Shown: positions 2,453 through 60,564, counted from the stretch's first letter. The stretch: DNA of 64,000 nt from an uncultured Pseudomonadota bacterium (GCA_902801125.1 CADCGT010000001.1:16637-80636); one strand, 5' to 3'. Made by a program: numbers and translations. Notes: generated by a model from the letters alone, not told the origin.

Positions 2453-2558
2453 GTTAGTGGTTAGTGTTAGTGTTAGTGGTTAGTGGCCTCTGGAATTAGT
2501 TCGTAATTAAAAAATTATTCCAGGGTCTACTAACCACTTACACTAATCACTAACCACT
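2453..2558 (+). repeat. Heptamer-armed palindromic element, copy 1 (core 2489-2524)
   Basis: TAGTGGT/TAGTGT arm + TCTGGAATTAGTTCGTAATTAAAAAATTATTCCAGG + CACTAAC arm; contains queH stop. Confidence 0.95.
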
Positions 2559-3091
2559 CTGATACTGAATTCGCAACCGCAATAATTTTGGCGATAAAAA
2601 TCACTTTCACGGTTGATTTGTACGCGTAAATTCTCGTCCCATTTTATGGGCAAATATTCTGTATCGCCGGGCGCAGATTCACCGGCCGCGTCAACCTGAG
2701 CCTGGTCTTTGTGGCGCGACACGCCCAAGACAGATGCCACCGCGTTATACCCGTTTTCACGCGCAAATTTTTTTGCATATTCAAACCGATACGCAAAGCA
2801 AACACTGCACCGCGCACCGCGTTCTGGCTCGGCCTCTAGCCCGCGTACCGCCGCACGCCACGCGTCGTGGTCATATTCGCCGATTTTATATTTCACACCC
2901 AATTTTTCACAATATTTTACTTGTTCTTGCATGCGGCGCATATATTCATCGGCGGGATAAATATTCGGATTAAAAAACAAAACAATAAAATCATCAACAC
3001 CGGGAATTTCCCCGCATGCCAGTTGTTTTATCGCGCCCGCGCTGCACGGCGCACAACAAGATACTAAAACAAGTTTTATTTTATCTAACAT
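2543..3091 (-). CDS. queH: Epoxyqueuosine reductase QueH
   Basis: CCAPC, EPERGARCSVC, FYRQNYCGC motifs. Confidence 0.9.
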   Translation of the reverse strand: MLDKIKLVLVSCCAPCSAGAIKQLACGEIPGVDDFIVLFFNPNIYPADEYMRRMQEQVKYCEKLGVKYKIGEYDHDAWRAAVRGLEAEPERGARCSVCFAYRFEYAKKFARENGYNAVASVLGVSRHKDQAQVDAAGESAPGDTEYLPIKWDENLRVQINRESDFYRQNYCGCEFSIRVVSD

Positions 3092-3525
3092 TATTGTTCT
3101 TTACCGTATATATTGTTAAAAAATTCATAAAGTTTGTTAGGTAATACACCAGCATATTTTGGAAAAACTTGATATCCTTGTCTATTTAGCACCAAAATAT
3201 CTTTATACGGTTTTTGTTCCCTTTTCAAATTTTTCTGTATTTGTGTGATGGTTTCTTTTGCGATTGTCAAATCATTCGGAACAACATAAAATGTTATTTC
3301 CCGTTTTACACTGTGAATAACGGGGTACACATGCGGAACAAACCTGTCATAAAACTCTAATTTATATGATGCAATAACTTGACATGGGTTATTTATTTCC
3401 CGTATGTATCTGTATGGTGCCTCTCCGTTGCCATTCCAACAAAATTCGTTTATATATCTATGACCGGTTATGTCATATGCGGTCAAAGAAAAACCACTAA
3501 ACGAAGTGCCTATTCTATAATTCAT
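3091..3525 (-). CDS. Hypothetical protein, distant paralog of 3972-4562
   Basis: 144-aa ORF; C-terminal QVFPKYAGVLPNKLYEFFN motif; SD supplied by the metG-tail copy. Confidence 0.75.
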   Translation of the reverse strand: MNYRIGTSFSGFSLTAYDITGHRYINEFCWNGNGEAPYRYIREINNPCQVIASYKLEFYDRFVPHVYPVIHSVKREITFYVVPNDLTIAKETITQIQKNLKREQKPYKDILVLNRQGYQVFPKYAGVLPNKLYEFFNNIYGKEQ

Positions 3526-3532
3526 TTTTATT

Positions 3533-3609
3533 TACTCCTTGGTTGTTTCTAATTCAATACGTGTGAACAGATTTTCTGGCACGGTGAATTTTTCGCCTGA
3601 TTCGATTCT
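3533..3609 (-). repeat. Duplicated 3' end of metG (direct repeat of 4568-4644)
   Basis: 73/77 identical by manual alignment. Confidence 0.95.
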
Positions 3610-3622
3610 TTGTCATTTTTAT

Positions 3623-3934
3623 TTATCGACCATTAGATTTACAGGGATAATTTAACCAACCAGACAGACCACGATTATATTCATCCCAAACCACTATCCT
3701 GCGCAACCGGGTCCCGGTTTGTTTTTTGAATCCGTCGTGAAGATTTTTAGTCGTTGTTTCACGCGTTATAATTACTGGACCTAAACATCTTGTATAACAC
3801 AAATAAAGTTCAGATTGTATATAATCCAACATAATATCTTTTTCGATATCTTTAAACACCGCAACACGTTTTTTATTAGGAATATTTGTGTTTGATATAA
3901 TGGTGTATTCGGTATATTTTACATTTTGCGACAT
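3623..3934 (-). CDS. Hypothetical protein
   Basis: 103-aa ORF with AAAGGA SD. Confidence 0.7.
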   Translation of the reverse strand: MSQNVKYTEYTIISNTNIPNKKRVAVFKDIEKDIMLDYIQSELYLCYTRCLGPVIITRETTTKNLHDGFKKQTGTRLRRIVVWDEYNRGLSGWLNYPCKSNGR

Positions 3935-3971
3935 GGTTTATCCTTTGTTTATAAACCTACATCTCTCTCGT

Positions 3972-4566: not shown

Positions 4567-6192
4567 CTACTCCTTGGTTGATTCCAATTCAATACGTGTA
4601 AACAGATTTTCCGGCACGGTGAATTTTTCGCCTGATTCGATTCTGTGTTCGTACATTGTCGGCCAAGATAAATCGTGCGCACCGGCAAATATGTTTTGAA
4701 TTTTTTCCGCCGCATCCGGAATAATCGGTGCAGACACGCGCGCGAACAAATCTATCAATTGGAAACATTCGTTCAACACCGCCGCCGCGCCCGCCGTATC
4801 GCCGTTTTTAACCAATGTCCACGGTTCGCGTGCGGTCATATATTCATTTGCAATTCCATAAATATCACGCAGCGCAACAATCGATTTCCGGAATTCGCAC
4901 GCGTCCAGGCAACCGGTCAATTCCGCCAATTTTTCATTTATGCGGTGCGCCAAATCTTCATCCATCGCGCGGCCGGCCGGTACAGTGTCCCCAAAGTTTT
5001 TGTTCGACAGTTTACACACGCGCGACACAAAGTTGCCAAGCAATCCATTCAAATCTTTGTTCACAATTTCGGCAAATCGCGTCATTGTAAAATCTGTATC
5101 GTCCGTTTCCGGTGCCGAAGCGAGCAGGGCATACCGCCAACAATCCGATGGTGCAATATTTAATGCTTCGTCCAAGAATATTCCGTTGCCGGTTGATTTT
5201 GAAATTTTTGCACCATTAAAGTTCAAGAAATTTTGCCCCTTTAATACATCAACGGTTTTCCAATTATCATCCATTGCCAATTCTTGGGCCGGGAAAAATA
5301 CAGAATGAAAAGACACATTGTCCTTTGCCATAAATTCTGTGTAATGACAATCCGGATTCTTCCACCATGACGCCCAATCCGGGGTCGCAATTTGCGAAAT
5401 AGAAACATAGCCCCACGGCGCATCAAACCATACATAAAATACTTTATTTTCATATCCAGGTTTATTTACCGGAATACCCCATTTCAAATCGCGCGTAATC
5501 GGGTTATCACGCAGGCCTTCGTCCAACCATTTATTTGCGATTTTAATCGCGGTTTTTGGCCAACCAACGCGCGAATTTATCCACGCGCGCAATTTGTCTT
5601 GCATTTTACTCAATTTAAAATACAGGTGTTTTGTTTCGCGCATTTCAACCGGGGAAGATGGGTCAATCGCACTGTGCGGGTTTATCAAATCCGCCGGGTC
5701 AAGGGACGCACCACATTTTTCACATTCGTTGCCATAGGCCCGTTCATAACCACAATGTGGACATGTGCCAACAACATAACGGTCGGCCAAGAATTTTTCT
5801 TCGGCAACGGAATAGGGTTGCATAGATGATTTTTCTTCTATCATGCCCAACGAATCAAGGCGATTAAACAATTCATGTATAAGTTTTTCATGCTGGGCGG
5901 TGTGCGTGCGACCATATAAATCAAAAGACAATTTAAAATCGCGCACCGCATCAAGGTGTTTCGCACGATATTTTTCAACATATTCTTCAACGGGCATATT
6001 TTCGCGGGCGGCCCCAATTTCAGATGTCGTTCCATGTTCATCCGAACCACCAATATACAGGACATCGCGACCACGCGCACGACAGAAACGCGCATAAACA
6101 TCACTTGGCAACAGGCAACCAATCAAATGCCCGATATGCAGTTGGTTATTCACATACGGTAATGCCGAAGTTATAAGATATTTTTCACTCAT
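4567..6192 (-). CDS. metG: Methionyl-tRNA synthetase
   Basis: ITSALPYVN, HIGH, Zn knuckles CPHC/CEKC, YVWFDA, KISKS. Confidence 0.97.
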   Translation of the reverse strand: MSEKYLITSALPYVNNQLHIGHLIGCLLPSDVYARFCRARGRDVLYIGGSDEHGTTSEIGAARENMPVEEYVEKYRAKHLDAVRDFKLSFDLYGRTHTAQHEKLIHELFNRLDSLGMIEEKSSMQPYSVAEEKFLADRYVVGTCPHCGYERAYGNECEKCGASLDPADLINPHSAIDPSSPVEMRETKHLYFKLSKMQDKLRAWINSRVGWPKTAIKIANKWLDEGLRDNPITRDLKWGIPVNKPGYENKVFYVWFDAPWGYVSISQIATPDWASWWKNPDCHYTEFMAKDNVSFHSVFFPAQELAMDDNWKTVDVLKGQNFLNFNGAKISKSTGNGIFLDEALNIAPSDCWRYALLASAPETDDTDFTMTRFAEIVNKDLNGLLGNFVSRVCKLSNKNFGDTVPAGRAMDEDLAHRINEKLAELTGCLDACEFRKSIVALRDIYGIANEYMTAREPWTLVKNGDTAGAAAVLNECFQLIDLFARVSAPIIPDAAEKIQNIFAGAHDLSWPTMYEHRIESGEKFTVPENLFTRIELESTKE

Positions 6193-6348: not shown

Positions 6349-6425
6349 TGGTGGGTGGTATTGGACTCGAACCAACGACCTTTACGATGTCAACGTAACG
6401 CTCTAACCAACTGAGCTAACCACCC
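6349..6425 (-). tRNA. tRNA-Val(GAC)
   Basis: GGGTGGTTAGCTCAG...TTACG-TTGACAT-CGTAA...GGTTCGAGTCC...ACCACCCACCA. Confidence 0.97.
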
Positions 6426-6451
6426 ATGTTCTTCAAGTGTTCTCGGACCGG

Positions 6452-6508
6452 GAACCAACGACCTTTACGATGTCAACGTACGCGGCTTCCCAACCGAACT
6501 AACCACCC
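6452..6508 (-). pseudogene. Degenerate upstream copy of tRNA-Val(GAC)
   Basis: 29-nt perfect match over anticodon arm to T-stem, decayed D-arm, no 3' acceptor strand. Confidence 0.8.
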
Positions 6509-6576
6509 AAACTCTTAGGCACCATTACACCCAAGGCAACGCGAATTATAACAAAGAATTTTTCAATTGCAAGTGT

Positions 6577-23664: not shown

Positions 23665-25277
23665 TGGCAAAATACGACAATAATTTTACAGACCAATTAC
23701 GCCAAAGGTTATCTGTGGTTGATGTTGTGTCGCGGCGTGTGCCATTGGTTAAACGCGGTCAAAATTATTGGGGATGTTGTCCGTTTCATAATGAAAAAAC
23801 ACCGTCTTTTTCGGTCAGTGAAGATAAAGGTTTTTATCACTGTTTCGGGTGCGGAAAACATGGCGACATTATTTCTTTTACAATGGAATCTGAACATGTT
23901 GATTTTAAAACCGCAATTGCCGAATTGGCCGATATGGCGGGATTAAAATTGCCGACATATAAACCAAAAACAAAACAACAAATTGAATCCGAAGAATCGT
24001 ATATAACCATAACGGCGGCCGCGGCCAAGATTTACGCCGAAAAATTATTTTCACCCGATGGTGCGCATGCGTTGGAATACGTGCGTCGCCGCGGTTTTAG
24101 TGATGAAATGATAAAAAAATATGGCATCGGGTATGCACCAAAAAATAATATTATTTCAAATAAATTTGCGAATATTAAACAAGAAAAAGTTATTGCGACG
24201 GGACTTGTCCGGCGCGGTGATTACGGGTTGTATGATTTCTTTCGTGATAAATTGATGTTTCCTATTTTTAATGCACACGGTCAAATTGTTGCATTTTCCG
24301 GGCGTTCATTGGATGGGTCCGAACCAAAATATATAAATACAACCGATACAGAAATGTTTCATAAACGGCAAACTCTGTTCGGGTTTAATTTTGCACGCGA
24401 ATCTATTCATCGTGCAAACCGCGCAATTATTGTCGAAGGTCAAATTGACGCAATTCAAATGCAATGTCATGGTTTTGGTGAAACGGTTGCGCCACTTGGC
24501 ACCGCATTGACCGAAGACCACATTGCAATTCTGTGCAAGGCAAACAGAAATATTATTTTCTGTTTTGATGGTGATGGGGCGGGGCAAAAGGCCGCCGCGC
24601 GTGCATGTGGTATTATTTTACCATTCTTGCGTGATAATTCTGATGTGCGTTTTGCGTTTGTGACGGGCGGCAAAGACCCAGATGAAGTATTGAAAAATGG
24701 TGGCCCGGGCGAGATGAAAAAAATTATAGATTCGGCGACGCCATTGGTTGATTTTTTATGGAATATTACAAATAAAAACTATTTAATAAATACACCGGCC
24801 GGTCGGGTCCAGGCGGAAAAATTTATCAAAACAAATACCGATAAAATAACCGATAAAATGTTGCGCGCAGAATATGAACGCGAATATAATAATCGTAAAT
24901 TTAATGAATGGCATAAATGGAAAAAAAATTCGGATACGGTAAATATTGATGTCCCGGAAATAGATAACATTATTAAAAACACACTTGTTTATATTGTAAA
25001 TAAATTTCCATCGGTTGCCGAACGATACGGTGATTTTATATCAAAATTTAATCTTGATTTAGATTCAGATGTCAAAGTTGATTTTGATATGGATTTAAAA
25101 TCTGCGGAAAAATATATAATCACTTTAAAGATACAAAAATATATGGAAAGTTTAGAAAAACAAAAACATGATTTAATGGTGCGCGGACTTTCGGGCGAAA
25201 GTGATGTAAGCCAAGAAATCCGCCGTATAGACGATGAAATAAACCGCATGAGAGAGAAGTTCGATTTGTTAGTGTAA
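23664..25277 (+). CDS. dnaG: DNA primase
   Basis: CPFHNEKTPSF Zn finger, PKYIN, VEGQID, FDGDGAG. Confidence 0.97.
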   Translation: MAKYDNNFTDQLRQRLSVVDVVSRRVPLVKRGQNYWGCCPFHNEKTPSFSVSEDKGFYHCFGCGKHGDIISFTMESEHVDFKTAIAELADMAGLKLPTYKPKTKQQIESEESYITITAAAAKIYAEKLFSPDGAHALEYVRRRGFSDEMIKKYGIGYAPKNNIISNKFANIKQEKVIATGLVRRGDYGLYDFFRDKLMFPIFNAHGQIVAFSGRSLDGSEPKYINTTDTEMFHKRQTLFGFNFARESIHRANRAIIVEGQIDAIQMQCHGFGETVAPLGTALTEDHIAILCKANRNIIFCFDGDGAGQKAAARACGIILPFLRDNSDVRFAFVTGGKDPDEVLKNGGPGEMKKIIDSATPLVDFLWNITNKNYLINTPAGRVQAEKFIKTNTDKITDKMLRAEYEREYNNRKFNEWHKWKKNSDTVNIDVPEIDNIIKNTLVYIVNKFPSVAERYGDFISKFNLDLDSDVKVDFDMDLKSAEKYIITLKIQKYMESLEKQKHDLMVRGLSGESDVSQEIRRIDDEINRMREKFDLLV

Positions 25278-25397
25278 GTGGTTATAGTGTTAGTGGTTAG
25301 TGGATAGTGGTTAGTGATTGGTGGCCTCTGGAATAAATTCAGAATTGCAAAATTATTCCAGATTCTACTAACCACTTACACTAGCCACTAACCACTA
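25268..25397 (+). repeat. Heptamer-armed palindromic element, copy 2 (core 25327-25362)
   Basis: Same architecture; holds stops of both convergent genes. Confidence 0.95.
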
Positions 25398-29956: not shown

Positions 29957-31036
29957 ATGGGTTTCAATTGTGGAATTGTTGGTTTGCCAAATGTAGGAAA
30001 ATCGACACTGTTTAATGCCTTGACGCAAAGTGCCGCGGCGGATGCGCAAAATTATCCGTTTTGTACCATTGAACCGAATACCGGGCGTGTGGTTGTACCG
30101 GATGAAACACTGCATAAATTGGCGGCGGTTGACAATTCGGCCAAGATTATACCGACACAATTGGAAATTGTTGATATTGCGGGACTTGTGCGCGGGGCAT
30201 CGACCGGTGAAGGTTTGGGTAATAAATTTTTGGGTAATATTTTGGAAACCGACGCAATTATTCATGTGGTAAGGTGTTTTGAAAACGATGATATTGTCCA
30301 TGTTGACGGCCGTATAGACCCAATTAGTGATATCGAAACAATCGAAACAGAACTTATGTTGGCGGATTTGGAAAGTTTAGCAAAACAGATTAAAAACCTT
30401 GAAAAAAAAGCACATGGTTTGGACAAAGTTGCTATAAAATTATTGGCCGATGCAAATGTAATCAAAGAAAACCTTGAAAAATCGGTGCCGGCACGGGATT
30501 CGGGTGTTGATACAAAACCGTTTAATTTATTGACCGCAAAACCGGTTATATATGTATGTAATGTGGACGAGGCCGCGGCCGCCAACGGAAACAAATTTTC
30601 ACAAATGGTTGTTGATAAATTTGCTGGTAAAAGTCCGGTTTTAATTATATCCGGAAAAATAGAGATGGAAATTGCGCAAATTATTGACCCGGCGGAACGC
30701 AAAATGTTCTTGGATGATTTAGGGTTGAAACAATCGGGGTTAGAGCAGGTTATCAAGACCGGGTATGAAACATTGGGACTGCAAACATTTTATACTGTTG
30801 GCCCGAAAGAGGCGCACGCCTGGACAATTTTGCGCGGTATGACCGCACCCCAGGCGGCCGGTAAAATTCATACAGATTTTGAACGTGGTTTTATTCGTGC
30901 AGAAGTTATTTCCCCAGATGATTATATAAAATATGGTGGCGAAGTTGCGGTAAAAGAGGCGGGTAAAATGCGCCTTGTTGGACGCGATTATGTTATGCAG
31001 GAAGGCGACATTTGCCATTTCTTGTTTAATAATTAG
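29957..31036 (+). CDS. ychF: Ribosome-binding ATPase YchF
   Basis: GIVGLPNVGKSTLFNALT, NYPFCTIEPN, IHTDFERGFIRAE. Confidence 0.98.
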   Translation: MGFNCGIVGLPNVGKSTLFNALTQSAAADAQNYPFCTIEPNTGRVVVPDETLHKLAAVDNSAKIIPTQLEIVDIAGLVRGASTGEGLGNKFLGNILETDAIIHVVRCFENDDIVHVDGRIDPISDIETIETELMLADLESLAKQIKNLEKKAHGLDKVAIKLLADANVIKENLEKSVPARDSGVDTKPFNLLTAKPVIYVCNVDEAAAANGNKFSQMVVDKFAGKSPVLIISGKIEMEIAQIIDPAERKMFLDDLGLKQSGLEQVIKTGYETLGLQTFYTVGPKEAHAWTILRGMTAPQAAGKIHTDFERGFIRAEVISPDDYIKYGGEVAVKEAGKMRLVGRDYVMQEGDICHFLFNN

Positions 31037-31153
31037 TGGTTAGTGTTAGTGGATAGTGGTTAGTGATTGGTGGCCTCTGGAATAAATTCAGAATTGCAAA
31101 ATTATTCCAGAATCTACTAACCACTAACACTAACCACTAACACTCGTCACTAA
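31033..31153 (+). repeat. Heptamer-armed palindromic element, copy 3 (core 31076-31111)
   Basis: Starts at ychF TAG; nearly identical to copy 2. Confidence 0.95.
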
Positions 31154-42817: not shown

Positions 42818-43888
42818 ATGACACGTTTGGAAATTTTTTATGCCAAAATGGTTTGCAGGTTTAGCAACGACAAACGTATTGCGATTTGGCGTAAATTGGT
42901 GTCTTTGTTGAAAAATGATTTTACATTGGTAAATGCACTAAATCGATTACAGATGATTGAATCGCACGGTGGTGCAAAACCAAATGAACCATTTGCAATT
43001 TGCCTGCGCGAATGGGAAAAAAACCTTGAACGCGGGATGAGTTTTTCCGAAGCCACACGCGGTTGGGTCCCCGCCGAAGAAACATTACTGTTGACAAGTG
43101 GAAATATGTCCAGTTTGATTGTAGCGTTGGAAAATGTTGGACGAATAATCGTCGCAAATAAAAGAATAGGGGGCGCGGTATTCAGTGCAATTGCATATCC
43201 GACATTGTTGTTGGTATTGGTGTTCGCAATTATAATTATGGTTGGACTTTATTTGGTGCCACCGCTTTCCGCCGTTGCCGGTGAAAATATGGTTTGGTCG
43301 GGTGGGGCATCATCATTGATATGGTTGTCAAATTTGGCGGGAAATTATTGGAAACCATTTATGGTTGCACTTGTGATTTTTGGTGTTTTTGTGTGGTGGT
43401 CTTTGCCGCGCCTGGCGGGGCGGGTGCGCGCGGTTATTGATAAATTGCCACCATGGAATATATATAAAATTCGTATGTCGGTTGGTTGGATGATGTCGTT
43501 GTCCGCCATGGTTGCGTCGGGTGTTGCGATACCGGATGCGATGCGTATGTTGGCCGATAATTCAAATCGGTATTTGCGACGGATATTAGAAGAAACATTG
43601 CATTATATCGCGAATGGTGATAATTTGGGTGACGCGTTGCAAAATACAGGTATGGATTTTCCAAACCAAGAATTGATAGGCGATTTAACAATCTATGCCG
43701 ATATGAATGATTTCGATACGAACCTGGGGCAGATTTCAAATGACTATTTGGAAAATTCCGTCAAGAAAATAGAGGCACTTGCCGAAACATTGAATACTGT
43801 TGGAATATTACTTATATCCGCGGTGATTGCGTGGATTGTCCTTGGCACATTCCAGATGCAAGACCAGATAACGGCGTTTTTGAGTTAG
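42818..43888 (+). CDS. Pilus inner-membrane platform protein (PilR/GspF family)
   Basis: AIAYP, three TM regions, LPPWNIYK; follows the ATPase. Confidence 0.85.
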   Translation: MTRLEIFYAKMVCRFSNDKRIAIWRKLVSLLKNDFTLVNALNRLQMIESHGGAKPNEPFAICLREWEKNLERGMSFSEATRGWVPAEETLLLTSGNMSSLIVALENVGRIIVANKRIGGAVFSAIAYPTLLLVLVFAIIIMVGLYLVPPLSAVAGENMVWSGGASSLIWLSNLAGNYWKPFMVALVIFGVFVWWSLPRLAGRVRAVIDKLPPWNIYKIRMSVGWMMSLSAMVASGVAIPDAMRMLADNSNRYLRRILEETLHYIANGDNLGDALQNTGMDFPNQELIGDLTIYADMNDFDTNLGQISNDYLENSVKKIEALAETLNTVGILLISAVIAWIVLGTFQMQDQITAFLS

Positions 43889-43986
43889 TGGTGAGTGTTA
43901 GTGGTTAGTAGATTCTGGAATAATTTTTTAATTACGAAATAATTCCAGACACCACTATCCACTAACCACTTGCACTAACCACTCTA
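43884..43986 (-). repeat. Heptamer-armed palindromic element, copy 4 (core 43914-43949, reverse orientation)
   Basis: Reverse complement matches copies 1 and 7; TAG stops of both convergent genes at its ends. Confidence 0.95.
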
Positions 43987-47316: not shown

Positions 47317-47969
47317 TGTTTGATGCAAAATGGTTTTTTGATTTAGAACGCAAAATAAAAGATTTGGGCGCGGACAGTGACGCCCAATCTTTTGATGAAA
47401 TTCGTGAAATGTTGGCACATCCGCGCAGACTTGCACCAGACGCGTTCGCAGAAATGTGCGCCTATGTAATCTTGGCGGGTGGGTTTTCACAAAAAACCGC
47501 AAAGCGGATTCATAAAAATATTATGGATTACATTTATAAAAATGGTGCGGATTTTGATGCGATTTTTCAAATGTTTCATAATAAAAATAAAGTATCTGCA
47601 ATTTGTAAAATATGGAACGAACGGTGCGCGTTGTGCGATGGGTTCTATAAATGTGAAAACGATGATGACCGGGTTGCGTACCTTGCAACATTGCCACATA
47701 TTGGAAAAATAACCGCGAATCATTTGGCGCGAAATTTGGGTGTAAATATCGTTAAATATGATGTTTGGATTCGGCGTTTGGGCGCGCAATACGCCGGAAT
47801 CCGCCGTATAGACGAAAATGGTAAATTGACGCCGGATGTAAAACGGGCGTGTGATGATATGTTCGCGCATATGGTTGCGGCGACCGGGCTTCCGCGGGGC
47901 TATATTGATGTTGTGTTATGGAAAGCATTACAAATTGGTTTGATAAAAGTGGATAGTGTTAGTGGTTAG
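47316..47969 (+). CDS. Helix-hairpin-helix glycosylase-like protein
   Basis: LATLPHIGKITANHLARNLG...KYDVWIRR; coupled to gyrB by TAATG. Confidence 0.75.
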
Positions 47970-48066
47970 TGCAAGTGGTTAGTGGTATCTGGAATTATTT
48001 TGTAATTATGAAATTATGCCAGATTCTACTAACCACTATCCACTAACACTACCCACTTACCACTAA
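47948..48066 (+). repeat. Heptamer-armed palindromic element, copy 5 (core 47988-48023)
   Basis: Encodes the last residues VDSVSG and stop of the upstream gene. Confidence 0.95.
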
Positions 48067-48084
48067 TTGAACGGAGTGAACGAT

Positions 48085-48750: not shown

Positions 48751-48870
48751 ATAGTGGGAAGTGTTAGTGGATAGTGTTAGTGGTTAGTGGTTTCTGGAAT
48801 TATTTCACAATTACAAAATTATTCCAGAATCTACTAACCACTATCCACTTACACTAACCACTAACACTAA
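48748..48870 (+). repeat. Heptamer-armed palindromic element, copy 6 (core 48793-48828)
   Basis: Between convergent TAG stops. Confidence 0.95.
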
Positions 48871-49961: not shown

Positions 49962-50016
49962 TCCCTTTTGATGTTATGATTATATCATTTTTACAACTGT
50001 GTGGCAAAGGGCATTT

Positions 50017-50813: not shown

Positions 50814-50994
50814 AAATAACAAACGACCCTTGTGGTCGTTTTTTATTTTGGTATATGGGATTTGGACCCCGGCACAGGGGTCCGAACCGCGGCAAAAAGG
50901 CGGAATAACGCCGGTCCACCGTAGCCCTTGGCGAAGGTGGATTTTGCAAGGTGGCGAAGCAATCCCGAGCCGTATAGTCGCGAGTGGATAAATG

Positions 50995-51786: not shown

Positions 51787-51934
51787 TCATAACCCTTTTA
51801 ATTTAAAAATATTCTTATGAATTCACCACTATGTTAGTATGATGAATTAAAAAAATCTATAATTTTTTATTGGCCGTGGGTCAACGAAATGTTATACTGT
51901 GTTCAGTTTTTTGTATACAAGCAAGGAGAGAAAA

Positions 51935-52483: not shown

Positions 52484-52484
52484 A

Positions 52485-53027: not shown

Positions 53028-53055
53028 TATAATGGAACGAACAAAAGGGGAAAAA

Positions 53056-53574: not shown

Positions 53575-53591
53575 AAAAGGGGGAAAATAAT

Positions 53592-54548: not shown

Positions 54549-54552
54549 AATT

Positions 54553-55572
54553 ATGAAGTGGTTGGTTTTGATAATATGTGCGTGTGTTTTGGTGGGGGTG
54601 GTGATTTGGCGTCAATCCAATTCATGGGATAAAGTTTTCCCGCGTGATGAAAATGTCACCGTCCAGAAAGTGCATTTCAAAAATCGCTATGGCATAGATT
54701 TAACCGGCGATTTATATATGCCAAAAAATAAACCGGATGCAAAATTGCCGGCAATCGCGGTGGCGGGGCCGTTCGGCGCGGTCAAAGAACAATCAAGTGG
54801 CCTGTATGCCACCGAGATGGCGCGTCGCGGTTTTATCGCGTTGGCGTTTGACCCGTCCTTTACCGGGGAAAGCGGGGGCGCCGTGCGATATGTGGCGTCG
54901 CCCGATATAAACACCGAAGATTTTTCCGCCGCGGTGGATTATTTGGCAAATCGGGTGGATGTTGATGCCGACAAAATCGGAATTATCGGAATCTGTGGTT
55001 GGGGTGGTATGGCAATAAATGCCGCCGCAATGGATACACGCATTCGGGCGACCGTTGCGTCAACTATGTATGATATGACGCGTGTGACCGCAAATGGATA
55101 CTTTGACGCCGATGATAATGCCGATGCACGGTTTGCCACAAAATCGGCACTGAATGCGCAAAGAACACAAGATTATAAAAACGGTCGGTATGAATTGGCG
55201 GGCGGGGTGGTTGACCCATTGCCAGACGATGCACCAAACTTTGTCAAAGATTACTATGCGTATTATAAAACCCCGCGCGGATATCATAAACGTTCGTTGA
55301 ATTCTAATGGCGGATGGAATAAAACCAGTGCTTTGTCGTTTATGAATATGCCGTTGTTGCAATATGCCGATGAAATTCGCAGCGCGGTATTGCTTGTTCA
55401 CGGTGAAAACGCGCACAGCCGGTATTTTAGTGAAGACGCGTTCAAAAAATTAAAAGGCGATAATAAAGAATTACTGATTGTGCCGAATGCGTCGCATGTT
55501 GACCTGTATGACAATATGGAAAAAATACCGTTTGATAAAATAGAATCTTTTATGCGGGAAAATATGAAATAA
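54553..55572 (+). CDS. Alpha/beta hydrolase
   Basis: GPFGAVKEQ, FDPSFTGESGG, GICGWGG, HVDLYD. Confidence 0.9.
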   Translation: MKWLVLIICACVLVGVVIWRQSNSWDKVFPRDENVTVQKVHFKNRYGIDLTGDLYMPKNKPDAKLPAIAVAGPFGAVKEQSSGLYATEMARRGFIALAFDPSFTGESGGAVRYVASPDINTEDFSAAVDYLANRVDVDADKIGIIGICGWGGMAINAAAMDTRIRATVASTMYDMTRVTANGYFDADDNADARFATKSALNAQRTQDYKNGRYELAGGVVDPLPDDAPNFVKDYYAYYKTPRGYHKRSLNSNGGWNKTSALSFMNMPLLQYADEIRSAVLLVHGENAHSRYFSEDAFKKLKGDNKELLIVPNASHVDLYDNMEKIPFDKIESFMRENMK

Positions 55573-56258
55573 TGTATGATGAAAATGAAATTAGAAATTC
55601 TCTGTATGCGGCGGCGGACGCCGTATACAGGGATTTTAATTCGTCTTTGATTACAACGGTTGATAAAAATTGTGTCATTGGTGTGCGGACACCGCGGTTG
55701 CGCGCAATGGCGAAAAATATGATAAAATCAGAAACAGACAAAGATTTTATTCAAAATTTGCCACATAAATTTTTTGAAGAAAATCAATTGCACGCCTTTG
55801 TTATATCGGAATACCGCGATTTTGATGCGGCGGTGCGGGCGGTTGATAATTTTTTGCCGTATATTGATAACTGGGCAACATGTGACCAAACATCGCCAAA
55901 GGTGTTTGTGAAAAACGCCGAAAAATTATTGCCGTATATCAAAAGATGGATTAAATCAAAACATGCCTATACGGTGCGTTTTGCGGTATTATGCCTTATG
56001 CGATATTTTTTAGACAATGATTTTGATACAAAATATGCCGATATGGTTTTAAATATAAATTCAGATGAATACTATGTAAATATGATGCGGGCATGGTATT
56101 TTGCAACCGCATGCGCAAAGCAATTCGATAAAATTGAACCATATTTTTCAAAACTGGACGGTTGGACGCGTGCGCGTGCGATTCAAAAATCGATTGAATC
56201 ACGGCGCGTGTCGGCGGAACACAAAGAAAAATTAAAAAATTTAAAAAAACTATTCTAG
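55572..56258 (+). CDS. DNA alkylation repair protein (AlkD-like)
   Basis: GVRTP.LR, IDNWATCD, YYVNMMRAW. Confidence 0.85.
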   Translation: MYDENEIRNSLYAAADAVYRDFNSSLITTVDKNCVIGVRTPRLRAMAKNMIKSETDKDFIQNLPHKFFEENQLHAFVISEYRDFDAAVRAVDNFLPYIDNWATCDQTSPKVFVKNAEKLLPYIKRWIKSKHAYTVRFAVLCLMRYFLDNDFDTKYADMVLNINSDEYYVNMMRAWYFATACAKQFDKIEPYFSKLDGWTRARAIQKSIESRRVSAEHKEKLKNLKKLF

Positions 56259-56612
56259 AAATATAATGCCAATCCAAAGTGCGCATACGCAAATTATGGT
56301 TATCATAACAATTGCACTGCCTATATCTTTGGCCTTTTTTGACAAGGGGTGTATTTCCGGACCGATTCTGTCTATTATGGTTTCGATTGCGGTGTTAATC
56401 ATTTCCGCAATAATTATGAACACCAAAGAAAACAACATTATTATGCGCGACAACCCCGATACATCAAGAAAACACAATAACACAGTGGCCAAAACACATA
56501 AAAATATATCTTGGCGAAATGCAGATTCTGATTTATATGTGGCAATTATGCCATCGATTGAATGCATAAATGCATGAAATATTCTGCGCAGCCCCGTTTC
56601 GTTCGATTTCAT
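56250..56612 (-). CDS. dgkA: Diacylglycerol kinase
   Basis: ESAFR, EMINTAIE..ID, KKAKDIGSA. Confidence 0.93.
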   Translation of the reverse strand: MKSNETGLRRIFHAFMHSIDGIIATYKSESAFRQDIFLCVLATVLLCFLDVSGLSRIIMLFSLVFIIIAEMINTAIETIIDRIGPEIHPLSKKAKDIGSAIVMITIICVCALWIGIIFLE

Positions 56613-58009
56613 TTTTTATCCTTTCCCGTGGCAAGTTGATAATACAGGTCGTTTTTTTGTTCCATCATGGATTGTAATTCTTGGTCGGAAAATCGTTCGC
56701 GTAAAGTTTTTGTTCCTTGGCAAGCGGTATCCAATGACACCCCAAGGGCCATTTTGCATCCATCAATCTTGGCACCGGCGGCCGACAACATCGTTGGGAA
56801 AAAATCCATTGCGGATACGGGTCGATGTAAATCTGCGCCTTGGAAAATAGGGGTGTTTATAAATACATTGGCCAATGGTCTGTTTGATATGGTATTTAAT
56901 TTTTTCATCAACGGCCCAGAATGTTGTTTGTGGTCATTCAACAGGATTATAACCGCGGTCGGGTCCGCCGCGCGAAACCATTTTACAAAATCATAGATAA
57001 TTTTATCATCGCATTTTGTGATGTCTTGCGTGGTTTCTTGTTTGAAACCCATATTACGACAGTAATCTGTAAAGAACCCTTCCAAATGGGTGTTGATTGT
57101 TTCCATGAATATAAAATACGGTTGTTTGGATTTAATTATATCTGATAATACGGGTTTGGACCATTCAAATAAAACCCCATCATCGACACCATGAAATGGT
57201 TTTTGTTTTGGTGGGTTTTTTAATTGGGCGTATATTTTTTCGCCGTCAATTACATGGTCAAAACCCATGTGATACATAAAGGATTCTTTTTTGGAAAAAT
57301 TGCCACTTGCCGGGAAAATAGACCATGTTTGATACCCGGCGCGATTTAATATTTTGCCAATGCCGTATGCACCTGTCATTTTATCGGTGTTGCGATAACT
57401 GGTATAGAATAATGGTAATCCGGACACGAACCCGGTAATTGCCGCAATGGTGTGCGACAGGCCGGGTATAGAGTGATAATTTTCAAATGATATATTTTTT
57501 TGCTCCAATTCGGTTATGTATGGGGTCAAGACTTCGCCAAATTTTTCTTGGTCGCCATATACTTTTTCGATGCTTTCAAGTGCGATGATTAAAACATTTC
57601 TTTTTTGTGGCCATTGTATATTCACACTTTGGGGGTCGACATATTCCGTTTCATAAAAGTTTGATTTGGTAAAGTTAAAAAAACTGCCAAATTGGACATT
57701 GCGTATGGCAATCTGGATAATCATAAACGCCGTATAGCACCCAAATACAAGTAATAAAACATTGCGTCTGTATTTGAACCAATGACAAATAAACGCGCCC
57801 AATCCCGCATAAAACAGGGAACGCAAAAGAACCTTGCGAACAAAGGCCCATAAAATTTGGGAATCTGTACCACCAATGCCAGAATTTAATACTATAGCGA
57901 TTTCATCAAAATTTATTCGTCCAAATTGGCCGTATATCCATTTAACCAACCATGCAAAAAATACGATTATAAATAAAGAGATAAAAATTTTGATGAATTT
58001 TTTGTTCAT
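56609..58009 (-). CDS. Phosphoglycerol transferase/LTA-synthase family sulfatase
   Basis: N-terminal TM helices, ALESIE, HTIAA, ETINTH, LNDH, MDFFPT. Confidence 0.85.
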   Translation of the reverse strand: MNKKFIKIFISLFIIVFFAWLVKWIYGQFGRINFDEIAIVLNSGIGGTDSQILWAFVRKVLLRSLFYAGLGAFICHWFKYRRNVLLLVFGCYTAFMIIQIAIRNVQFGSFFNFTKSNFYETEYVDPQSVNIQWPQKRNVLIIALESIEKVYGDQEKFGEVLTPYITELEQKNISFENYHSIPGLSHTIAAITGFVSGLPLFYTSYRNTDKMTGAYGIGKILNRAGYQTWSIFPASGNFSKKESFMYHMGFDHVIDGEKIYAQLKNPPKQKPFHGVDDGVLFEWSKPVLSDIIKSKQPYFIFMETINTHLEGFFTDYCRNMGFKQETTQDITKCDDKIIYDFVKWFRAADPTAVIILLNDHKQHSGPLMKKLNTISNRPLANVFINTPIFQGADLHRPVSAMDFFPTMLSAAGAKIDGCKMALGVSLDTACQGTKTLRERFSDQELQSMMEQKNDLYYQLATGKDKK

Positions 58010-58173
58010 GGTGATTCCTTGGTAAATACAATAGGATTTTAATCGTAATATACTATATATTCAATAAATTTATGTCAATTATCGTTAAAAGTAAGTCCTA
58101 AAACAGGTCAGGGCGGTTTTTTACTTGATTTTTTTCCATATGTTCGTATAATTCGCCCGTGATTTTACGAATT

Positions 58174-58247
58174 GCCCTAATAGTCTAGTGGTAAAACACG
58201 TCCTTGGTAAGGACGAGTCGCAAGTCCGATTCTTGCTTAGGGCACCA
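58174..58247 (+). tRNA. tRNA-Thr(GGT)
   Basis: GCCCTAA...CGTCC-TTGGTAA-GGACG...TTAGGGCACCA. Confidence 0.95.
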
Positions 58248-58472
58248 GAAATATCCCATCTGATTTGCGTTTGTTGATTTTTGTTCGGGTCGTGTATGTC
58301 TAATACACTCCCGTCACAAGAATTGCACAATACGCATCATCTGGAACATTTCTGGCGCCCTGCGGGCACCACCCTTCGCGTCTTTGAGGCTTCATAAATG
58401 GTGTATATCGTGATACAGTTTTGTTTTCTAAATTGAAATCAGAATATGGGGCGAAATAAAAAATTATAGTGC

Positions 58473-58501
58473 TTGAAAATAATAAAATCTTGGTCTAGAA
58501 T
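58473..58501 (+). promoter_or_regulatory. Sigma70-type promoter for the aspS leader
   Basis: TTGAAA-17 bp-TAGAAT. Confidence 0.7.
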
Positions 58502-58509
58502 ACCGGAAA

Positions 58510-58684
58510 GTTTTGGCGGTTATGATGATGTGCCCAACAACCACGGAGTAATCGGCAAAACATTAAAAAAGTGATAAATTCGGGTGGCACCGCGCATAGC
58601 CAATATGCGCCCCGAAAGAGCATTAAAATAACATGGGTGCCAAAATTTCCTGGTTTTGTCGCCCAAAAAGTAAAAGGCGAAAAA
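58510..58684 (+). promoter_or_regulatory. T-box riboswitch, ultrashort stem I, translational type
   Basis: Antiterminator TTCGGG-TGGCACC-GCGCATA/TATGCGC-CCCGAA; K-turn stem I; alternative SD-sequestering helices. Confidence 0.85.
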
Positions 58685-60454
58685 ATGTTATCACTGAAAT
58701 CAAAATACAGAACACATACATGTGGTGAACTGTCGGCCAAAAATGTTGGTGAAACCGTGACACTTTCGGGCTGGGTCCATCGTAAACGCGACCATGGGTC
58801 GTTGCTGTTTATCGACCTGCGCGATAATTATGGAATTACACAGATTGTTATTGATGGCGGAAACGAGGATTTAGAACGCGTGCGCCCGGAATCTGTATTA
58901 CAGGTTGTCGGCAAGGTTGTCGCGCGTGACGCGTCCCAGGTAAATGATAAAATCCCAACCGGGGAAATTGAAATCCAGGTTGAATCTTGGAATGTTTTGA
59001 CATCAGCCGAGGTTTTGCCTTTCCAGGTTTTCGGCGATGAAGATACCAGTGAAGAATTACGGTACAAATATCGGTTCTTGGATTTGCGCCGTGAAAAATT
59101 GCATCACAATATTTTGATGCGCAACAAAATGATAAAATGGTTGCGCGATAAAATGTGGGATTTGGGATTTTCGGAATTTCAGACGCCGTTGCTTACCGCC
59201 GATTCACCCGAAGGTGCGCGCAGTTTCTTGGTTCCATCGCGTTTGCATCATGGTAAATTCTATGCGTTGCCCCAGGCCCCCCAGATGTTCAAACAATTAT
59301 TACAGGTGTCGGGTTTCGACCGGTATTTCCAAATTGCACCGTGTTTTCGTGATGAAGATTTGCGTGCAGACCGTTTGTTAGAATTCTATCAATTAGATTT
59401 AGAAATGTCTTTTGTTGATTTGCCGGATATTCAGGCCGTAGGCGAGGCGGTAATGCCGGAATTTGTGCGGACTTTTTTGCCGACGGCAAATGTATATCCG
59501 GAAATTCCACATATTTCTTTTGATGACGCGATGTTAAAATATGGGTCCGATAAGCCAGATTTGCGTAACCCGATTTTGATTTCTGATGTGACGGAAATTT
59601 TCCGTGGTTCGGATTTTGGAATCTTTGCGAACGCAATTGAAAATGGCGCCGTTGTGCGTGCAATTCCGGCCCCGAACAGCGCGGACAAACCACGTTCGTG
59701 GTTTGATAAACTTGGCGAATATGCCGTGAAAGAATTGGGGCTTGGGGGACTTGCCTATATCGTGTTTGGCGAAGAAGCCAAAGGTCCGGTTGCCAAGAAA
59801 TTGGACGAGGCAAGAATTGCGAAACTGCGCAATGTGGCCGGTGATAATTCTTCGTTGTTCTTTGTGTGCGACGCACAAGAATCGGCGGCCAAGGCGGCGG
59901 GCAGGCTGCGCAACAAATTGGGGGCAGATTTGGGTTTAATCAATGAAAACGATTTTGCGTTTTGTTGGGTTGATAATTTCCCGTTCTTTGAACCCGATGA
60001 AGAACGCGGTGGCGCACCGGCCTTTACACATAACCCATTTTCATACCCGATGGCAACATTGGAAGAATTGTCCACGCGTGACCCGTTCACGATTAAGGCG
60101 GCACAATTTGATATGGTGTTGAATGGTATGGAAATTTGCAGTGGGGGATTGCGCAACTATAACCCGGATGTTATGAAAAAATGTTTCGAAATCGCCGGTT
60201 ATCCAATAGAGGCGGTCGAAAAGAACTTTTCGGGCCTGTATACATCGTTCCAATATGGTGCGCCACCACACGGCGGGTGCGCGTTTGGTATCGAAAGACT
60301 TATTTCAGAAATTTTGGGTAATGGTGACAGTTTGCGTGAAATTGTCGCGTTCCCGGCGAACCAACGCGGACAAGATTTGCTTATGGGGTCACCAAACGAA
60401 GTTACCGAACAGCAACTGCGCGATGTGCATATTCAGGTAAGAAAGAAGAATTAG
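58685..60454 (+). CDS. aspS: Aspartyl-tRNA synthetase, probably non-discriminating
   Basis: YRTHTCG, RDHG, YALPQAPQ, FRDEDLRADR, GAPPHGG.AFG; true start MLSLK. Confidence 0.97.
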   Translation: MLSLKSKYRTHTCGELSAKNVGETVTLSGWVHRKRDHGSLLFIDLRDNYGITQIVIDGGNEDLERVRPESVLQVVGKVVARDASQVNDKIPTGEIEIQVESWNVLTSAEVLPFQVFGDEDTSEELRYKYRFLDLRREKLHHNILMRNKMIKWLRDKMWDLGFSEFQTPLLTADSPEGARSFLVPSRLHHGKFYALPQAPQMFKQLLQVSGFDRYFQIAPCFRDEDLRADRLLEFYQLDLEMSFVDLPDIQAVGEAVMPEFVRTFLPTANVYPEIPHISFDDAMLKYGSDKPDLRNPILISDVTEIFRGSDFGIFANAIENGAVVRAIPAPNSADKPRSWFDKLGEYAVKELGLGGLAYIVFGEEAKGPVAKKLDEARIAKLRNVAGDNSSLFFVCDAQESAAKAAGRLRNKLGADLGLINENDFAFCWVDNFPFFEPDEERGGAPAFTHNPFSYPMATLEELSTRDPFTIKAAQFDMVLNGMEICSGGLRNYNPDVMKKCFEIAGYPIEAVEKNFSGLYTSFQYGAPPHGGCAFGIERLISEILGNGDSLREIVAFPANQRGQDLLMGSPNEVTEQQLRDVHIQVRKKN

Positions 60455-60564
60455 GGTAGAGTGGTTAGTGTAAGTGGTTAGTGGCTAGTGGTGTCTGGAA
60501 TTATTTCGTAATTATGAAATTATGCCAGATTCTACTAACCACTAACACTCGCCACTAACACTAA
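60452..60564 (+). repeat. Heptamer-armed palindromic element, copy 7 (core 60494-60529)
   Basis: Between convergent TAG stops of aspS and the asmA-like gene. Confidence 0.95.

Follow-up and report, generated by a model that had tools for sequence, protein, structure and literature searches.

A previously undescribed family of dispersed palindromes, of the REP/BIME/MITE kind, is present in the window analysed here (the whole stretch of 64,000 nucleotides), each two-armed copy consisting of an array of short tandem units, an AT-rich core with dyad symmetry, and an inverted array. Our preferred interpretation, to which we assign a probability of about 0.55, is that these are non-autonomous palindromes anchored by their arrays in 3′ UTRs, that they have probably spread by recombination between arrays, and that they act as hairpins at 3′ ends. 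The arrays themselves are a general feature, and the AT-rich core is one among several interchangeable hairpin modules.

Anatomy of the seven copies

A consensus scan of the 64-kb window matched the 36-bp core at seven sites with 0 mismatches, six on the plus strand and one (at 43914) on the minus strand, and 100 dinucleotide-preserving shuffles gave a chance expectation of 0; all seven copies in the first-pass annotation, each with a core of exactly 36 bp, are accounted for. Read directly, the left arms are built of TAGTGG/TAGTG-type units and the right arms of CCACTAA-type units, and whole copies are imperfect palindromes of 99–128 bp (about 110 bases). Repeat clustering places them in one family (7 copies, 108 nt, 60–93% identity to the reference copy). 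The neighbouring genes are housekeeping genes by Pfam match, and the copies are arranged as follows.

Copy 1, 2455..2559, plus strand: left array 2455-2485, core 2489-2524, right array ~2535-2559; between minus-strand fabD-like (1526-2410) and queH (2543-3091) genes (Pfam matches), the queH frame entering the right arm by 17 nt and ending at an array TAG
Copy 2, 25270..25397, plus strand: 7 array units to the left of the core (25327-25362) and 4 to its right; between dnaG (23664-25277, plus), whose TAA stop lies within the array, and a 247-aa ORF (25395-26138, minus)
Copy 3, 31034..31152, plus strand: core 31076-31111; its first TAG is the stop codon of ychF (29957-31036)
Copy 4, 43886..43984, minus strand (reverse polarity): core 43914-43949; between a convergent T2SS-F/PilC-like gene (42761-43888, plus) and 190-aa ORF (43984-44556, minus)
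Copy 5, 47947..48065, plus strand: core 47988-48023; flanked by an OGG-like gene (47316-47969) and by udg (48067-48750), 18 nt ahead of the udg start codon
Copy 6, 48752..48869, plus strand: core 48793-48828; between convergent udg (plus), whose stop is 2 nt before the array, and a 364-aa ORF (48867-49961, minus)
Copy 7, 60459..60563, plus strand: core 60494-60529; between convergent aspS (58571-60454, plus) and an 825-aa ORF (60561-63038, minus)

RNA folding predicts a single long hairpin in 7/7 copies (-43 to -58 kcal/mol), with z-scores of -7.7 to -11.4 and equal stability in 0/200 shuffles. The pairing of left and right arms is not copy-specific (self -55.7 versus chimeric -58.6 kcal/mol), and the arms therefore provide no covariation support for a selected structure. 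The palindrome of the core extends across its centre, where 82–90% complementarity is seen at pairs 16/21, 17/20 and 18/19. Among 40 distinct cores, the outer 8 bp of the half-sites (TCTGGAAT..ATTCCAGA) are 93–100% conserved with no compensatory changes seen, and the inner part is variable. Between copies 2 and 3 the inner 108 nt show 93% identity but the outer arms are different, and copies 4 and 7, in opposite orientation, are 92% complementary over 110 nt.

Arrays at gene ends throughout the genome

The gut bacterium has a very small genome (0.97 Mb, 95% complete), and a profile built from the seven copies finds 21 in it, with a non-random spread: the window holds 7 of the 21 in 6.6% of the genome. 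The proposal that core length never changes holds inside the window but not beyond it, as there are 29-bp and 37-bp cores elsewhere in the genome and a 16-bp core in the nearest relative. Similarly, six copies are forward and one reversed as first described, but the linker asymmetry used to define this polarity is not family-wide; in 45 armed cores taken from the source genome, two relatives and metagenome contigs, a GTTAGTA-type linker is on both sides in 27 and on one side in 18.

Tandem 6/7-nt units (TTAGTGG/TTAGTG) form 72 arrays of at least 3 units at 57 loci genome-wide, and 57 of the 72 come after an open frame of ≥60 codons in the same sense. The stop codon of these frames is the array's first TAG in 31, a later array TAG in 9, and is located ≤9 nt upstream of the array in 10. 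Because one strand of an array reads TAG and the opposite strand TAA, there is a stop in every frame within about three units, and an array may thus abut or overlap a gene end, often supplying the stop codon. The UAGs are regularly spaced, at 7 nt in 134 units and 6 nt in 76, and AGTG is invariant in every unit, single-armed arrays included. Use of the first TAG as the stop is strong in the source genome only (31 first versus 9 later); the counts are 16 versus 16 in related metagenome contigs and 4 versus 3 in the relatives G055 and G057, and in G006 the stop is mostly 10–45 nt upstream of the array. The 57 loci include 20 in convergent, 31 in tandem and 6 in divergent orientation (background 167/543/165), and for the 14 two-armed loci the numbers are 8, 5 and 1.

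Many arrays are single-armed, lack a core, and are positioned just upstream of ordinary terminators. Two GC-rich modules also lie within arrays at a constant unit position (TTAGT, then CCGTC..GACGGG, then TGTTAGTGG). The units do not behave as a DNA uptake sequence (DUS/USS), as they are not over-represented genome-wide: together, TAGTG and CACTA are found 812 times in the 0.97-Mb genome versus about 1,900 expected (5-mer, both strands, equal bases), and a large share of the 812 fall within arrays.

Clade restriction, gain and loss

The family is limited to one subclade of a single genus of ruminant-gut bacteria, Candidatus Enterousia. Across 151 genus genomes, an array 13-mer has 0 matches in 107 and fewer than 5 in 124; the arrays, missing altogether from most of the species, cannot be a core regulatory system. 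The arms are common to the species that have them, whereas the cores are species-specific and interchangeable; a constant core with variable arms, as first put forward, is therefore not supported as the defining anatomy, and many arrays are coreless.

Occupancy of orthologous sites varies among species and among strains, as a search for empty and filled sites revealed, and is thus not identical throughout the lineage. The sites of copies 1, 3 and 5 are empty in G055, and that of copy 5 is filled in G057. The copy 2 site has a shorter version in G055, and GC-rich modules plus ~0.9 kb of other DNA in G057. At copy 4, G055 has two palindromes enclosing a small gene and G057 the small gene only; at copy 7, G055 also has a small gene enclosed by two palindromes. 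The udg stop at the copy 6 site is followed by an ordinary GC hairpin terminator in G055 and by GC-rich modules in G057. At the ychF stop, arrays are present in 2 of 24 genus genomes (the source genome, and G057 with a GC-rich module), and most of the 22 array-free genomes have TAA and an ordinary CCGG-type terminator. The filled ychF site (aataat[TAGTGG..GTCAC]TAATTTG) and the empty one in G055 (aataatTAATTTG) are compatible with a TA duplication, and as TA occurs in every unit the element boundaries are ambiguous. Two orthologous gene ends bear an array-palindrome in one species and an ordinary terminator in another.

Copy 5 is absent from DNA contigs of two other studies (X5 and X7, independent metagenome assemblies). 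The empty joints, 47952->48063 (X5, 110 nt skipped) and 47952->48064 (X7, 111 nt skipped), show neither letters shared by the two sides of the joint nor a duplication; the breakpoints are inside array units, and the empty allele retains AAGTGG..CTAA. Copy 6 is intact and spanned by X5 and X7 contigs. Since copy 5 sits ahead of udg, within a gene pair that is tightly spaced in other strains, its position seems neutral or slightly deleterious rather than functional. Strains also differ by 14-nt (two-unit) arm indels, with a deletion at 43951 (X5) and insertions at 60459 (X5) and 60558 (X19), and by a +G variant at 47970. The indels support the earlier suggestion that arms are rebuilt by slippage; its companion, templated repeat addition, is not supported, as no reverse transcriptase was found.

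At the end of an 817-aa gene, an array separates the stop's TA from the terminator in the source genome, G055 and G057; in array-free relatives such as G002, G010 and G052, TAA runs straight into that same CCGCCC..GGGCGG terminator. At another site, the array has 3 units in the source genome and 7 in G055, with one and the same terminator after it. Both observations suggest that the arrays are the older layer. Arm sequence is also present in RNA-library contigs, which break at the repeat and for which DNA carry-over is possible.

Searches for a mobilizing enzyme

No match to Y1_Tnp (PF01797), DDE_3, rve, DDE_Tnp_1, RVT_1 or TnpB was found in the 95%-complete genome, nor to DDE_3 or DDE_Tnp_1 in five array-rich relatives. 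Y1 transposases occur in 2 of the 151 genus genomes, and the ends of both genes are ordinary IS200-type hairpins with neither TTAGTGG arrays nor the core; with no Y1/RAYT gene found in the genome, a RAYT-mobilised REP/BIME is not supported, although short imperfect palindromes at intergenic 3′ regions, in mosaics, are a trait in common. The only recombinases found in the genome are two of Xer size and a 567-aa phage-type integrase. The dif-like site on contig C2 is unlike the 36-bp core, and neither a Xer/dif-type site nor the tyrosine-recombinase site first suspected is borne out. An integron attC-type site is likewise unsupported, there being no cognate integron integrase among the recombinases found and the copies being dispersed between housekeeping genes.

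Rfam at gathering score matched no described family in the window, only five tRNAs, and in E-value mode gave only sub-threshold miRNA-precursor hairpin matches (noise). Plasmid and phage sequences had no match to the element, and no relevant paper was found with its 12/13-mers, in keeping with the earlier view of a non-autonomous element of no named class. A 20-mer has a single chance-level match, in a Stigonema MAG.

These searches bear on an alternative that we regard as unlikely but the best of the remainder, that of a classical MITE, in which the arms are repeated transposase-binding sites, the core is the remnant of an IS whose interior was deleted, and the transposase is encoded elsewhere (lost from or unassembled in these MAGs). 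The inverted arrays resemble terminal repeats, near-identical copies are locally clustered, a whole copy is present or absent between strains with a joint lacking microhomology, the core is palindromic to its centre as expected of abutted terminal repeats, and the ychF pair would accommodate a TA duplication. Against this, none of the transposase families searched was found in the genome, the rare Y1 genes have unrelated ends, outer units vary from copy to copy such that the ends are undefined, the copy 5 empty/filled pair shows no duplication, and single-armed arrays are left unexplained. The autonomous version envisaged earlier, with the same arms around an ORF, was not found: at 13 metagenome loci with 2–3 cores close together, ordinary genes lie between the cores.

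Possible hairpin function and protein binding

A second alternative, which we consider very unlikely, is that these are protein-binding sites, either the core for a dimeric DNA-binding protein or recombinase, or the array RNA for a ring-shaped RNA-binding protein. HutP and TRAP are ring-shaped proteins that bind UAG/GAG repeats and tune termination. The near-invariant outer 8 bp of the core would fit a protein-binding site, and the invariant AGTG of each unit and the location of arrays directly 5′ of terminator hairpins point the same way. However, no HutP or TRAP family protein (PF09021, PF02081) was matched in the genome, the core differs from the dif-like site, arrays are missing from most genus species, cores are interchangeable between species, and core invariance may reflect the youth of the copies.

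Equally improbable is a lineage-specific motif for termination or attenuation that arose at each site without copying between sites, since identities of 92–93% at unrelated loci are impossible by independent origin, presence varies within species and one copy precedes a start codon, even though the motif is at 3′ ends, is enriched at convergent gene pairs, takes the place of relatives' ordinary terminators, and provides the sole strong hairpin for the genes ending at copies 4–6. Nor is the AT-core palindrome itself an intrinsic terminator: it has no downstream U tract (no T run follows the right arm), and a terminator scan called no canonical terminator-like site at the copies 4–6 gene ends. 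An ordinary GC terminator is directly beside 5 of the 21 core copies, and the AT-core hairpin is thus not needed as a terminator there.

Comparison with known systems

REP/BIME elements of enterobacteria and pseudomonads are likewise short imperfect palindromes in transcribed intergenic 3′ ends, often a few bases from a stop codon, forming mosaics and varying between strains and species, and they are proposed to act as mRNA 3′ hairpins. The present family differs in lacking a single REP stem headed by GTAG, in that no RAYT/Y1 gene was found, and in its arms, which are built of tandem 6/7-nt units whose number varies and of which the first is often the stop codon. Correia elements (NEMIS) of Neisseria are also non-autonomous palindromes of ~100–150 bp, dispersed near gene ends, with inverted ends that pair in RNA, and we know of no cognate transposase in their host. 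Compared by description only, they have constant 26-bp end repeats and a TA duplication, whereas the present elements end in unit arrays without sharp boundaries, show no demonstrable duplication, and have interchangeable cores.

BOX elements of Streptococcus pneumoniae and RIME/RPE-type mosaics of Alphaproteobacteria are similarly modular, variable in internal unit number and lineage-restricted, in small or compact genomes, but with units of tens of bases rather than 6/7 nt; to our knowledge none is described with all-frame stops on both strands or abutting stop codons. Cyanobacterial STRR heptamers are intergenic tandem arrays too, with other unit sequences and in another phylum, and we are aware of no description that gives them a core between paired inverted arms or ties them to stop codons. 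Intrinsic (Rho-independent) terminators occupy the same slot after the stop, with mutual replacement at two orthologous gene ends; the AT-core palindrome differs in its AT-rich centre, ~45-bp stem and lack of a U tract.

A proposed model for spread and function

The reading we prefer, an array-anchored palindrome spread by recombination, would place the element in a slot between stop codon and terminator. The anatomy, the placement, the restriction to one clade, gain and loss, and the slippage of units are observed, whereas the route of copying and any influence on RNA belong to the model. The arrays would be inherited mostly vertically, with length altered by slippage. The core and inner arms may then be copied between array-bearing gene ends, with array homology guiding recombination or template switching and no dedicated transposase. 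Copying within the genome is suggested by the likeness of copies 2 and 3 and of copies 4 and 7 and by the clustering of 7 of the 21, and exchange of modules by the same arms around different cores, the GC modules in arrays, and the swap of terminator and palindrome at two ends. The case for recombinational copying is an argument from absence, made from seven transposase/recombinase families, and MAGs often lose IS elements. Once transcribed, the arms would pair into a ~45-bp hairpin at the 3′ end of one or both convergent genes, where it would act as a 3′-end barrier or processing site, replacing or supplementing an ordinary terminator.

A broader possibility, itself a long shot, is that the arrays are a distinct 3′-end system of one Enterousia subclade, and not merely the arms of a selfish palindrome. 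If so, a site-directed, transposase-free process would place arrays precisely on the TA of stop codons, and the arrays would be landing pads at which the AT core, the two GC modules and terminators are swapped. The array RNA would then combine a multi-frame stop with a UAG-repeat platform for a putative multimeric RNA-binding protein, which would set termination or readthrough at ~8% of gene ends.

Seven palindromes around an AT-rich core

A pattern search with the 36-bp core consensus identified seven sites in the window, six on the plus and one on the minus strand, all of them without a mismatch, where 100 shuffles predict none by chance, bearing out the seven copies claimed in the first-pass annotation. 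In every copy, TAGTGG/TAGTG-type units (left arm) are followed by the core, TCTGGAAT-N20-ATKCCAGR, and then by complementary CCACTAA-type units (right arm), and each is predicted to form, as RNA, a single long hairpin (-43 to -58 kcal/mol, z -7.7 to -11.4). Repeat comparison of the window yields a single family (n=7, 108 nt) in which copies 2 and 3 (93% identical) and copies 4 and 7 (92%, in inverse orientation) are the most alike, and the likeness between near-identical copies stops within the arms. We found no copy-specific complementarity between left and right arms, and no covariation in support of a selected structure was seen.

The seven copies in the source genome and the equivalent sites in its nearest relatives, G055 and G057
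Copy 1, 2455-2559: source genome filled; G055 empty; G057 locus rearranged
Copy 2, 25270-25397: source genome filled; G055 shorter version; G057 GC-rich modules plus ~0.9 kb
Copy 3, 31034-31152: source genome filled; G055 empty; G057 GC-rich module at the same stop
Copy 4, 43886-43984: source genome filled; G055 small gene flanked by two palindromes; G057 small gene only
Copy 5, 47947-48065: source genome filled; G055 empty; G057 filled
Copy 6, 48752-48869: source genome filled; G055 ordinary terminator; G057 GC-rich modules
Copy 7, 60459-60563: source genome filled; G055 small gene flanked by two palindromes; G057 no anchor found

The genes beside these copies are of ordinary housekeeping type (fabD-like, queH, dnaG, ychF, T2SS-F/PilC-like, OGG-like, udg and aspS), together with lineage ORFans; the ORFans adjoining copies 2, 3, 4, 6 and 7 lack a significant match in Pfam and any match in NCBIfam or PADLOC. 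A profile of the seven cores detects 21 copies (E below 1e-4) in the source genome (0.97 Mb, 7 contigs), where an earlier fuzzy-pattern count gave 17; the window is 6.6% of the genome yet holds 7 of the 21. When up to 4 mismatches were allowed in the core, most matches were false, and armed cores only were used instead. Within the window the core is indeed invariably 36 bp (7/7), as first proposed, but this constancy does not extend further, with cores of 29 bp and 37 bp elsewhere in the source genome and of 16 bp in the nearest relative. Nor is polarity from asymmetric linkers a general trait, as 27 of 45 armed cores have the same linker on both sides.

Unit arrays at gene ends are the general feature

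The general feature is the array of units, not the core. Runs of at least three units form 72 arrays at 57 loci in the source genome (79 at 63 by a laxer count), and only 14 loci are two-armed, the majority being single arrays, so that a fixed core can no longer be taken as the defining part. In a single array the stop codon is followed by (TTAGTGG/TTAGTG)n, in many cases by GTTAGTAAAA, and then by a GC-rich hairpin and a T run, and the array thus lies immediately 5' of an ordinary intrinsic terminator. Units of 7 nt (n=134) outnumber those of 6 nt (n=76); AGTG is constant and the 2-3 bases between vary. Besides the AT core there are two GC-rich modules of ~35 nt, whose position within the unit never varies: TTAGT, then CCGTC...GACGGG, then TGTTAGTGG. 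In another genome, G006 (segments L021-L026 and L032), arrays sit inside larger elements with outer inverted repeats of GATAAATAAAAGTTTA type and a GC hairpin core, and many single arrays come after a terminator, not before it.

Stop codon of the upstream frame (an open frame of at least 60 codons) relative to the array
Source genome: frame at 57/72 arrays; stop is the first TAG in 31, lies up to 9 nt upstream in 10, is a later TAG in 9
Related metagenome contigs: frame at 56/71 arrays; first TAG 16; up to 9 nt upstream 15; later TAG 16
G055/G057 segments: frame at 11/16 arrays; first TAG 4; up to 9 nt upstream 4; later TAG 3
G006 loci: frame at 15/27; first TAG 1; up to 9 nt upstream 2; later TAG 1; 10-45 nt upstream 11

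By our own reasoning, random frame entry would place about one third of stops at the first TAG, and the 31 first versus 9 later TAGs of the source genome are well over this. The first-TAG rule is weaker elsewhere, and exact coincidence with the stop codon is therefore a property of the source genome; what holds generally is that arrays lie close to the stop codon. With TAG in TTAGTGG, TAA in its complement, and 7-nt units alternating with 6-nt ones, a stop occurs in all frames of both strands within about three units; an array may therefore touch or replace a stop codon and leave the protein unharmed. On crude ORF picks, convergent gene pairs are enriched at array loci (20/57, against 167/875 in the background) and divergent pairs are rare (6/57 against 165/875); 8 of the 14 two-armed loci lie at convergent pairs.

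Distribution within the order

A 20-mer arm pattern matched at least 113 stretches of DNA records; among the matches listed, almost all (73 of 80) belong to MAGs from ruminant guts under the names Candidatus Enterousia, Alphaproteobacteria or 'proteobacterium', and seven are single matches in unrelated phyla. Enterousia belongs to order Rs-D84 and has genomes of less than ~1 Mb, according to PMC12306168, in which 'repeat', 'palindrom' and 'mobile' do not occur. We counted an exact 13-mer in 201 genomes of the order, 151 of them of the same genus. It occurs 69 times in the source genome and from 0 to about 69 times per genome across the genus, with at least 5 occurrences in 27 of the 151 and none in 107; in other genera and families it occurs only 0-2 times, the same as a reversed-pattern control. 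Other species carry the same arms around different cores. The AT core was seen only in the source genome, G055, G057 and 39 rumen-type metagenome stretches, with 0 matches in a sample of 40 relatives drawn without G055 and G057, which both carry it.

No named class could be assigned, in agreement with the first-pass annotation so far as searched: the plasmid and phage collections have no match to copy 6, and Rfam gives nothing beyond tRNAs at gathering score and sub-threshold generic miRNA-hairpin matches in E-value mode. Among the papers listed, those with the array 7-mers are unrelated, as are the five that contain the 12/13-mers, and neither Rfam nor the portion of the literature covered by sequence words and Enterousia describes the element.

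Turnover between relatives and strains

We compared the window with syntenic regions of G055 (~78-94% nucleotide identity in most blocks) and G057. Empty as well as filled orthologous sites, which had been suggested as something to look for, are present, with copies 1, 3 and 5 empty in G055. Copy 5 is also wholly absent from DNA contigs of two other studies (X5, 6,508 nt, and X7, 3,615 nt), which skip 110 and 111 nt, respectively, with no shared letters at the joint; this empty allele retains the outermost AAGTGG and ..CTAA, and the breakpoints fall within units, without duplication. Copies 6 and 7 are retained in both runs. Elsewhere in the window, 376 nt at 52629-53006 are missing from DNA contigs of two other studies, in which 10 letters are shared at the joint; the deletion fuses adjacent 180-aa ORFs (52485-53027 and 53032-53574) that we take to be paralogous. 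Contigs of other strains differ by two units (14-nt indels) at 43951, 60459 and 60558, and at 47970 an added G converts a 6-mer to a 7-mer, which supports the proposal that arms change by slippage.

The element occupies the terminator slot, and swaps between an ordinary terminator and an array palindrome are seen at orthologous gene ends. The ychF stop has no array in 22 of 24 genus genomes examined, most having TAA and an ordinary terminator. At 39081-39199 the source genome and G055 keep an ordinary terminator, and the G057 equivalent reads array, AT core, array, GC hairpin, array, and then the same downstream sequence. After an 817-aa gene, the source genome, G055 and G057 have an array in common, placed identically after the TA of the stop and before a retained terminator, and differing in unit make-up alone; array-free relatives have TAA directly and then the same terminator. 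Set against the turnover of palindromes, this shared array suggests that arrays are the older, mostly vertical layer, and the AT-core palindromes look like a younger, mobile one.

The paired palindromes of G055 (L064:5965-6620 and L063:14611-15342) enclose a 55-57-aa ORF preceded by a conserved ~250-nt leader, in which two hairpins occur, CCAACC-N4-GGTTGG and the terminator-like AACCGTT..AACGGTTTTTG. We rejected a transposon here and read the arrangement as a small gene that has an end hairpin of its own. The two ORFs have no Pfam match and the L064 segment no Rfam family; a 40-aa homologue stands alone in G057, where, at another place, a similar leader also precedes what is by eye a ~135-aa ORF. 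Leader and ORF could constitute a small RNA, or else a small gene under leader control.

The region adjoining ychF looks like a variable island: just after ychF the source genome has ~1.7 kb more than G055 (copy 3 and a 491-aa ORFan), and G057 has ~20 kb of other DNA starting with a Bro-N/antirepressor-like gene, as read from its sequence. Window positions 28000-36000 have a GC content of 0.36 versus about 0.43, and contain ORFans and a tRNA gene (34504-34577). Another tRNA gene (6352-6425) has a partial second copy of one end 83 nt away (6452-6516 versus 6369-6433, 82% identical), which may be an old integration scar, and an 81-nt direct repeat (3533-3613 and 4568-4648, 94% identical, 1,035 nt apart) lies among neighboring minus-strand ORFs.

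What moves the element

No mover was identified in the genomes and families searched. The source genome (95%-complete) has no match for Y1_Tnp/RAYT, DDE_3, rve, DDE_Tnp_1, RVT_1 or TnpB domains, and the five array-richest relatives have none for DDE_3 or DDE_Tnp_1; the lack of an RVT_1 match in the source genome leaves the templated repeat addition put forward at first unsupported. Two of the 151 genomes of the genus (G179, G044) have Y1 transposases, whose ends are unrelated to the element; we rejected them as movers. An autonomous version, with arms around an enzyme ORF, was looked for at 13 metagenome loci with 2-3 cores 0.1-2.7 kb apart and not found; ordinary genes lie between (ychF, fabD/fabG, smpB, an outer-membrane protein or surface ORFans), and we rejected the paired cores as an autonomous element. 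The source genome encodes two Xer-size tyrosine recombinases, one 567-aa phage-type integrase and three serine recombinases. Its best dif-like site (contig C2 near 135406), which has one mismatch to what we take to be the consensus and is a lead only, is unlike the core, which we therefore discarded as a dif-like site; the tyrosine-recombinase site of the first-pass annotation is not supported.

One of the serine recombinase genes (C6:7276-7701) adjoins an inverted-repeat pair of another kind. Outside the window (C1:138312, C1:158394, C2:148339 and C6:7032-7059, for example), ~25 loci have a ~110-nt segment between inverted repeats GCGTAAAAAAACCAAGGTTT and AAACCTTGGTTTTTTTACGC, which resemble Hin-type hix sites; AAACCWWGGTTT has 50 matches in the genome and none in the window. 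The segments have opposite orientations at different loci, each directly 5' of paralogous signal-peptide proteins, and look like invertible promoters of phase-variable surface proteins.

The best overall explanation, to which we assign a probability of about 0.55, is that of an array-anchored, non-autonomous 3'-UTR palindrome. Arrays are already present at many gene ends, similarity between near-identical copies ends in the arms, and the copy 5 breakpoints lie inside units; from these observations we infer, tentatively, that AT-core copies might spread through homology between arrays, by recombination or template switching, a step that we prefer within this explanation while holding it to be somewhat doubtful. 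A conventional MITE whose transposase is present but unassembled is a serious rival; the element fell outside transposase-linked MITEs when tested for membership, and we regard this rival as unlikely.

A hairpin in the terminator slot

The swaps at orthologous gene ends suggest that the element can take the place of a terminator; at copies 4-6 it is the sole strong hairpin at the gene end, and it is enriched at convergent gene pairs. Three observations argue against its being needed as a terminator: the AT-core hairpin has no U tract, an ordinary terminator adjoins 5 of 21 copies, and copy 5 lies 18 nt 5' of a start codon. REP and Correia elements are reported to form 3' hairpins that block exonucleases, are cut by RNases or act as insulators. 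The array-anchored palindrome would most likely act similarly, as a 3'-end hairpin that blocks exonucleases, serves as a substrate for double-strand RNases or insulates convergent genes. The boldest reading, of arrays directed to stop codons and served by a binding protein of their own, seems to us improbable, and HutP/TRAP-site and DNA-uptake-sequence readings were rejected on membership tests. Contigs of two RNA-library runs (X18, X19), which may include DNA, contain arm sequence and end or cross-join at the repeats (43921 to 48833 and 48037 to 60540, for example), and are uninformative on transcript ends.

Relation to known repeats and significance

The element works like REP/BIME, Correia and BOX-type intergenic palindromes. 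Those membership tests that were run placed it outside REP/RAYT, and the AT-core form outside intrinsic terminators. Its distinctive features are the 6/7-nt stop-bearing arm units, anchoring at stop codons, single-armed forms before ordinary terminators, and interchangeable hairpin modules.

Genomes of this uncultured gut lineage are ~1 Mb in size and, on crude ORF picks, ~90% of their length is open reading frame; these compact genomes nonetheless keep ~60 loci of fast-turning gene-end repeats. The family is an example of repeat tolerance in a compact genome, in which the repeat also substitutes for terminators. Arrays can serve as strain markers because unit number varies, and they probably account for contig breaks and cross-joins in assemblies of rumen metagenomes. 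Any cognate enzyme or binding protein that exists should be revealed by phyletic comparison over the ~150 genomes of the genus. Strains that have or lack copy 5, and gene ends that bear different modules, are natural experiments, and these could serve to measure the effects of such hairpins on termination and mRNA stability.
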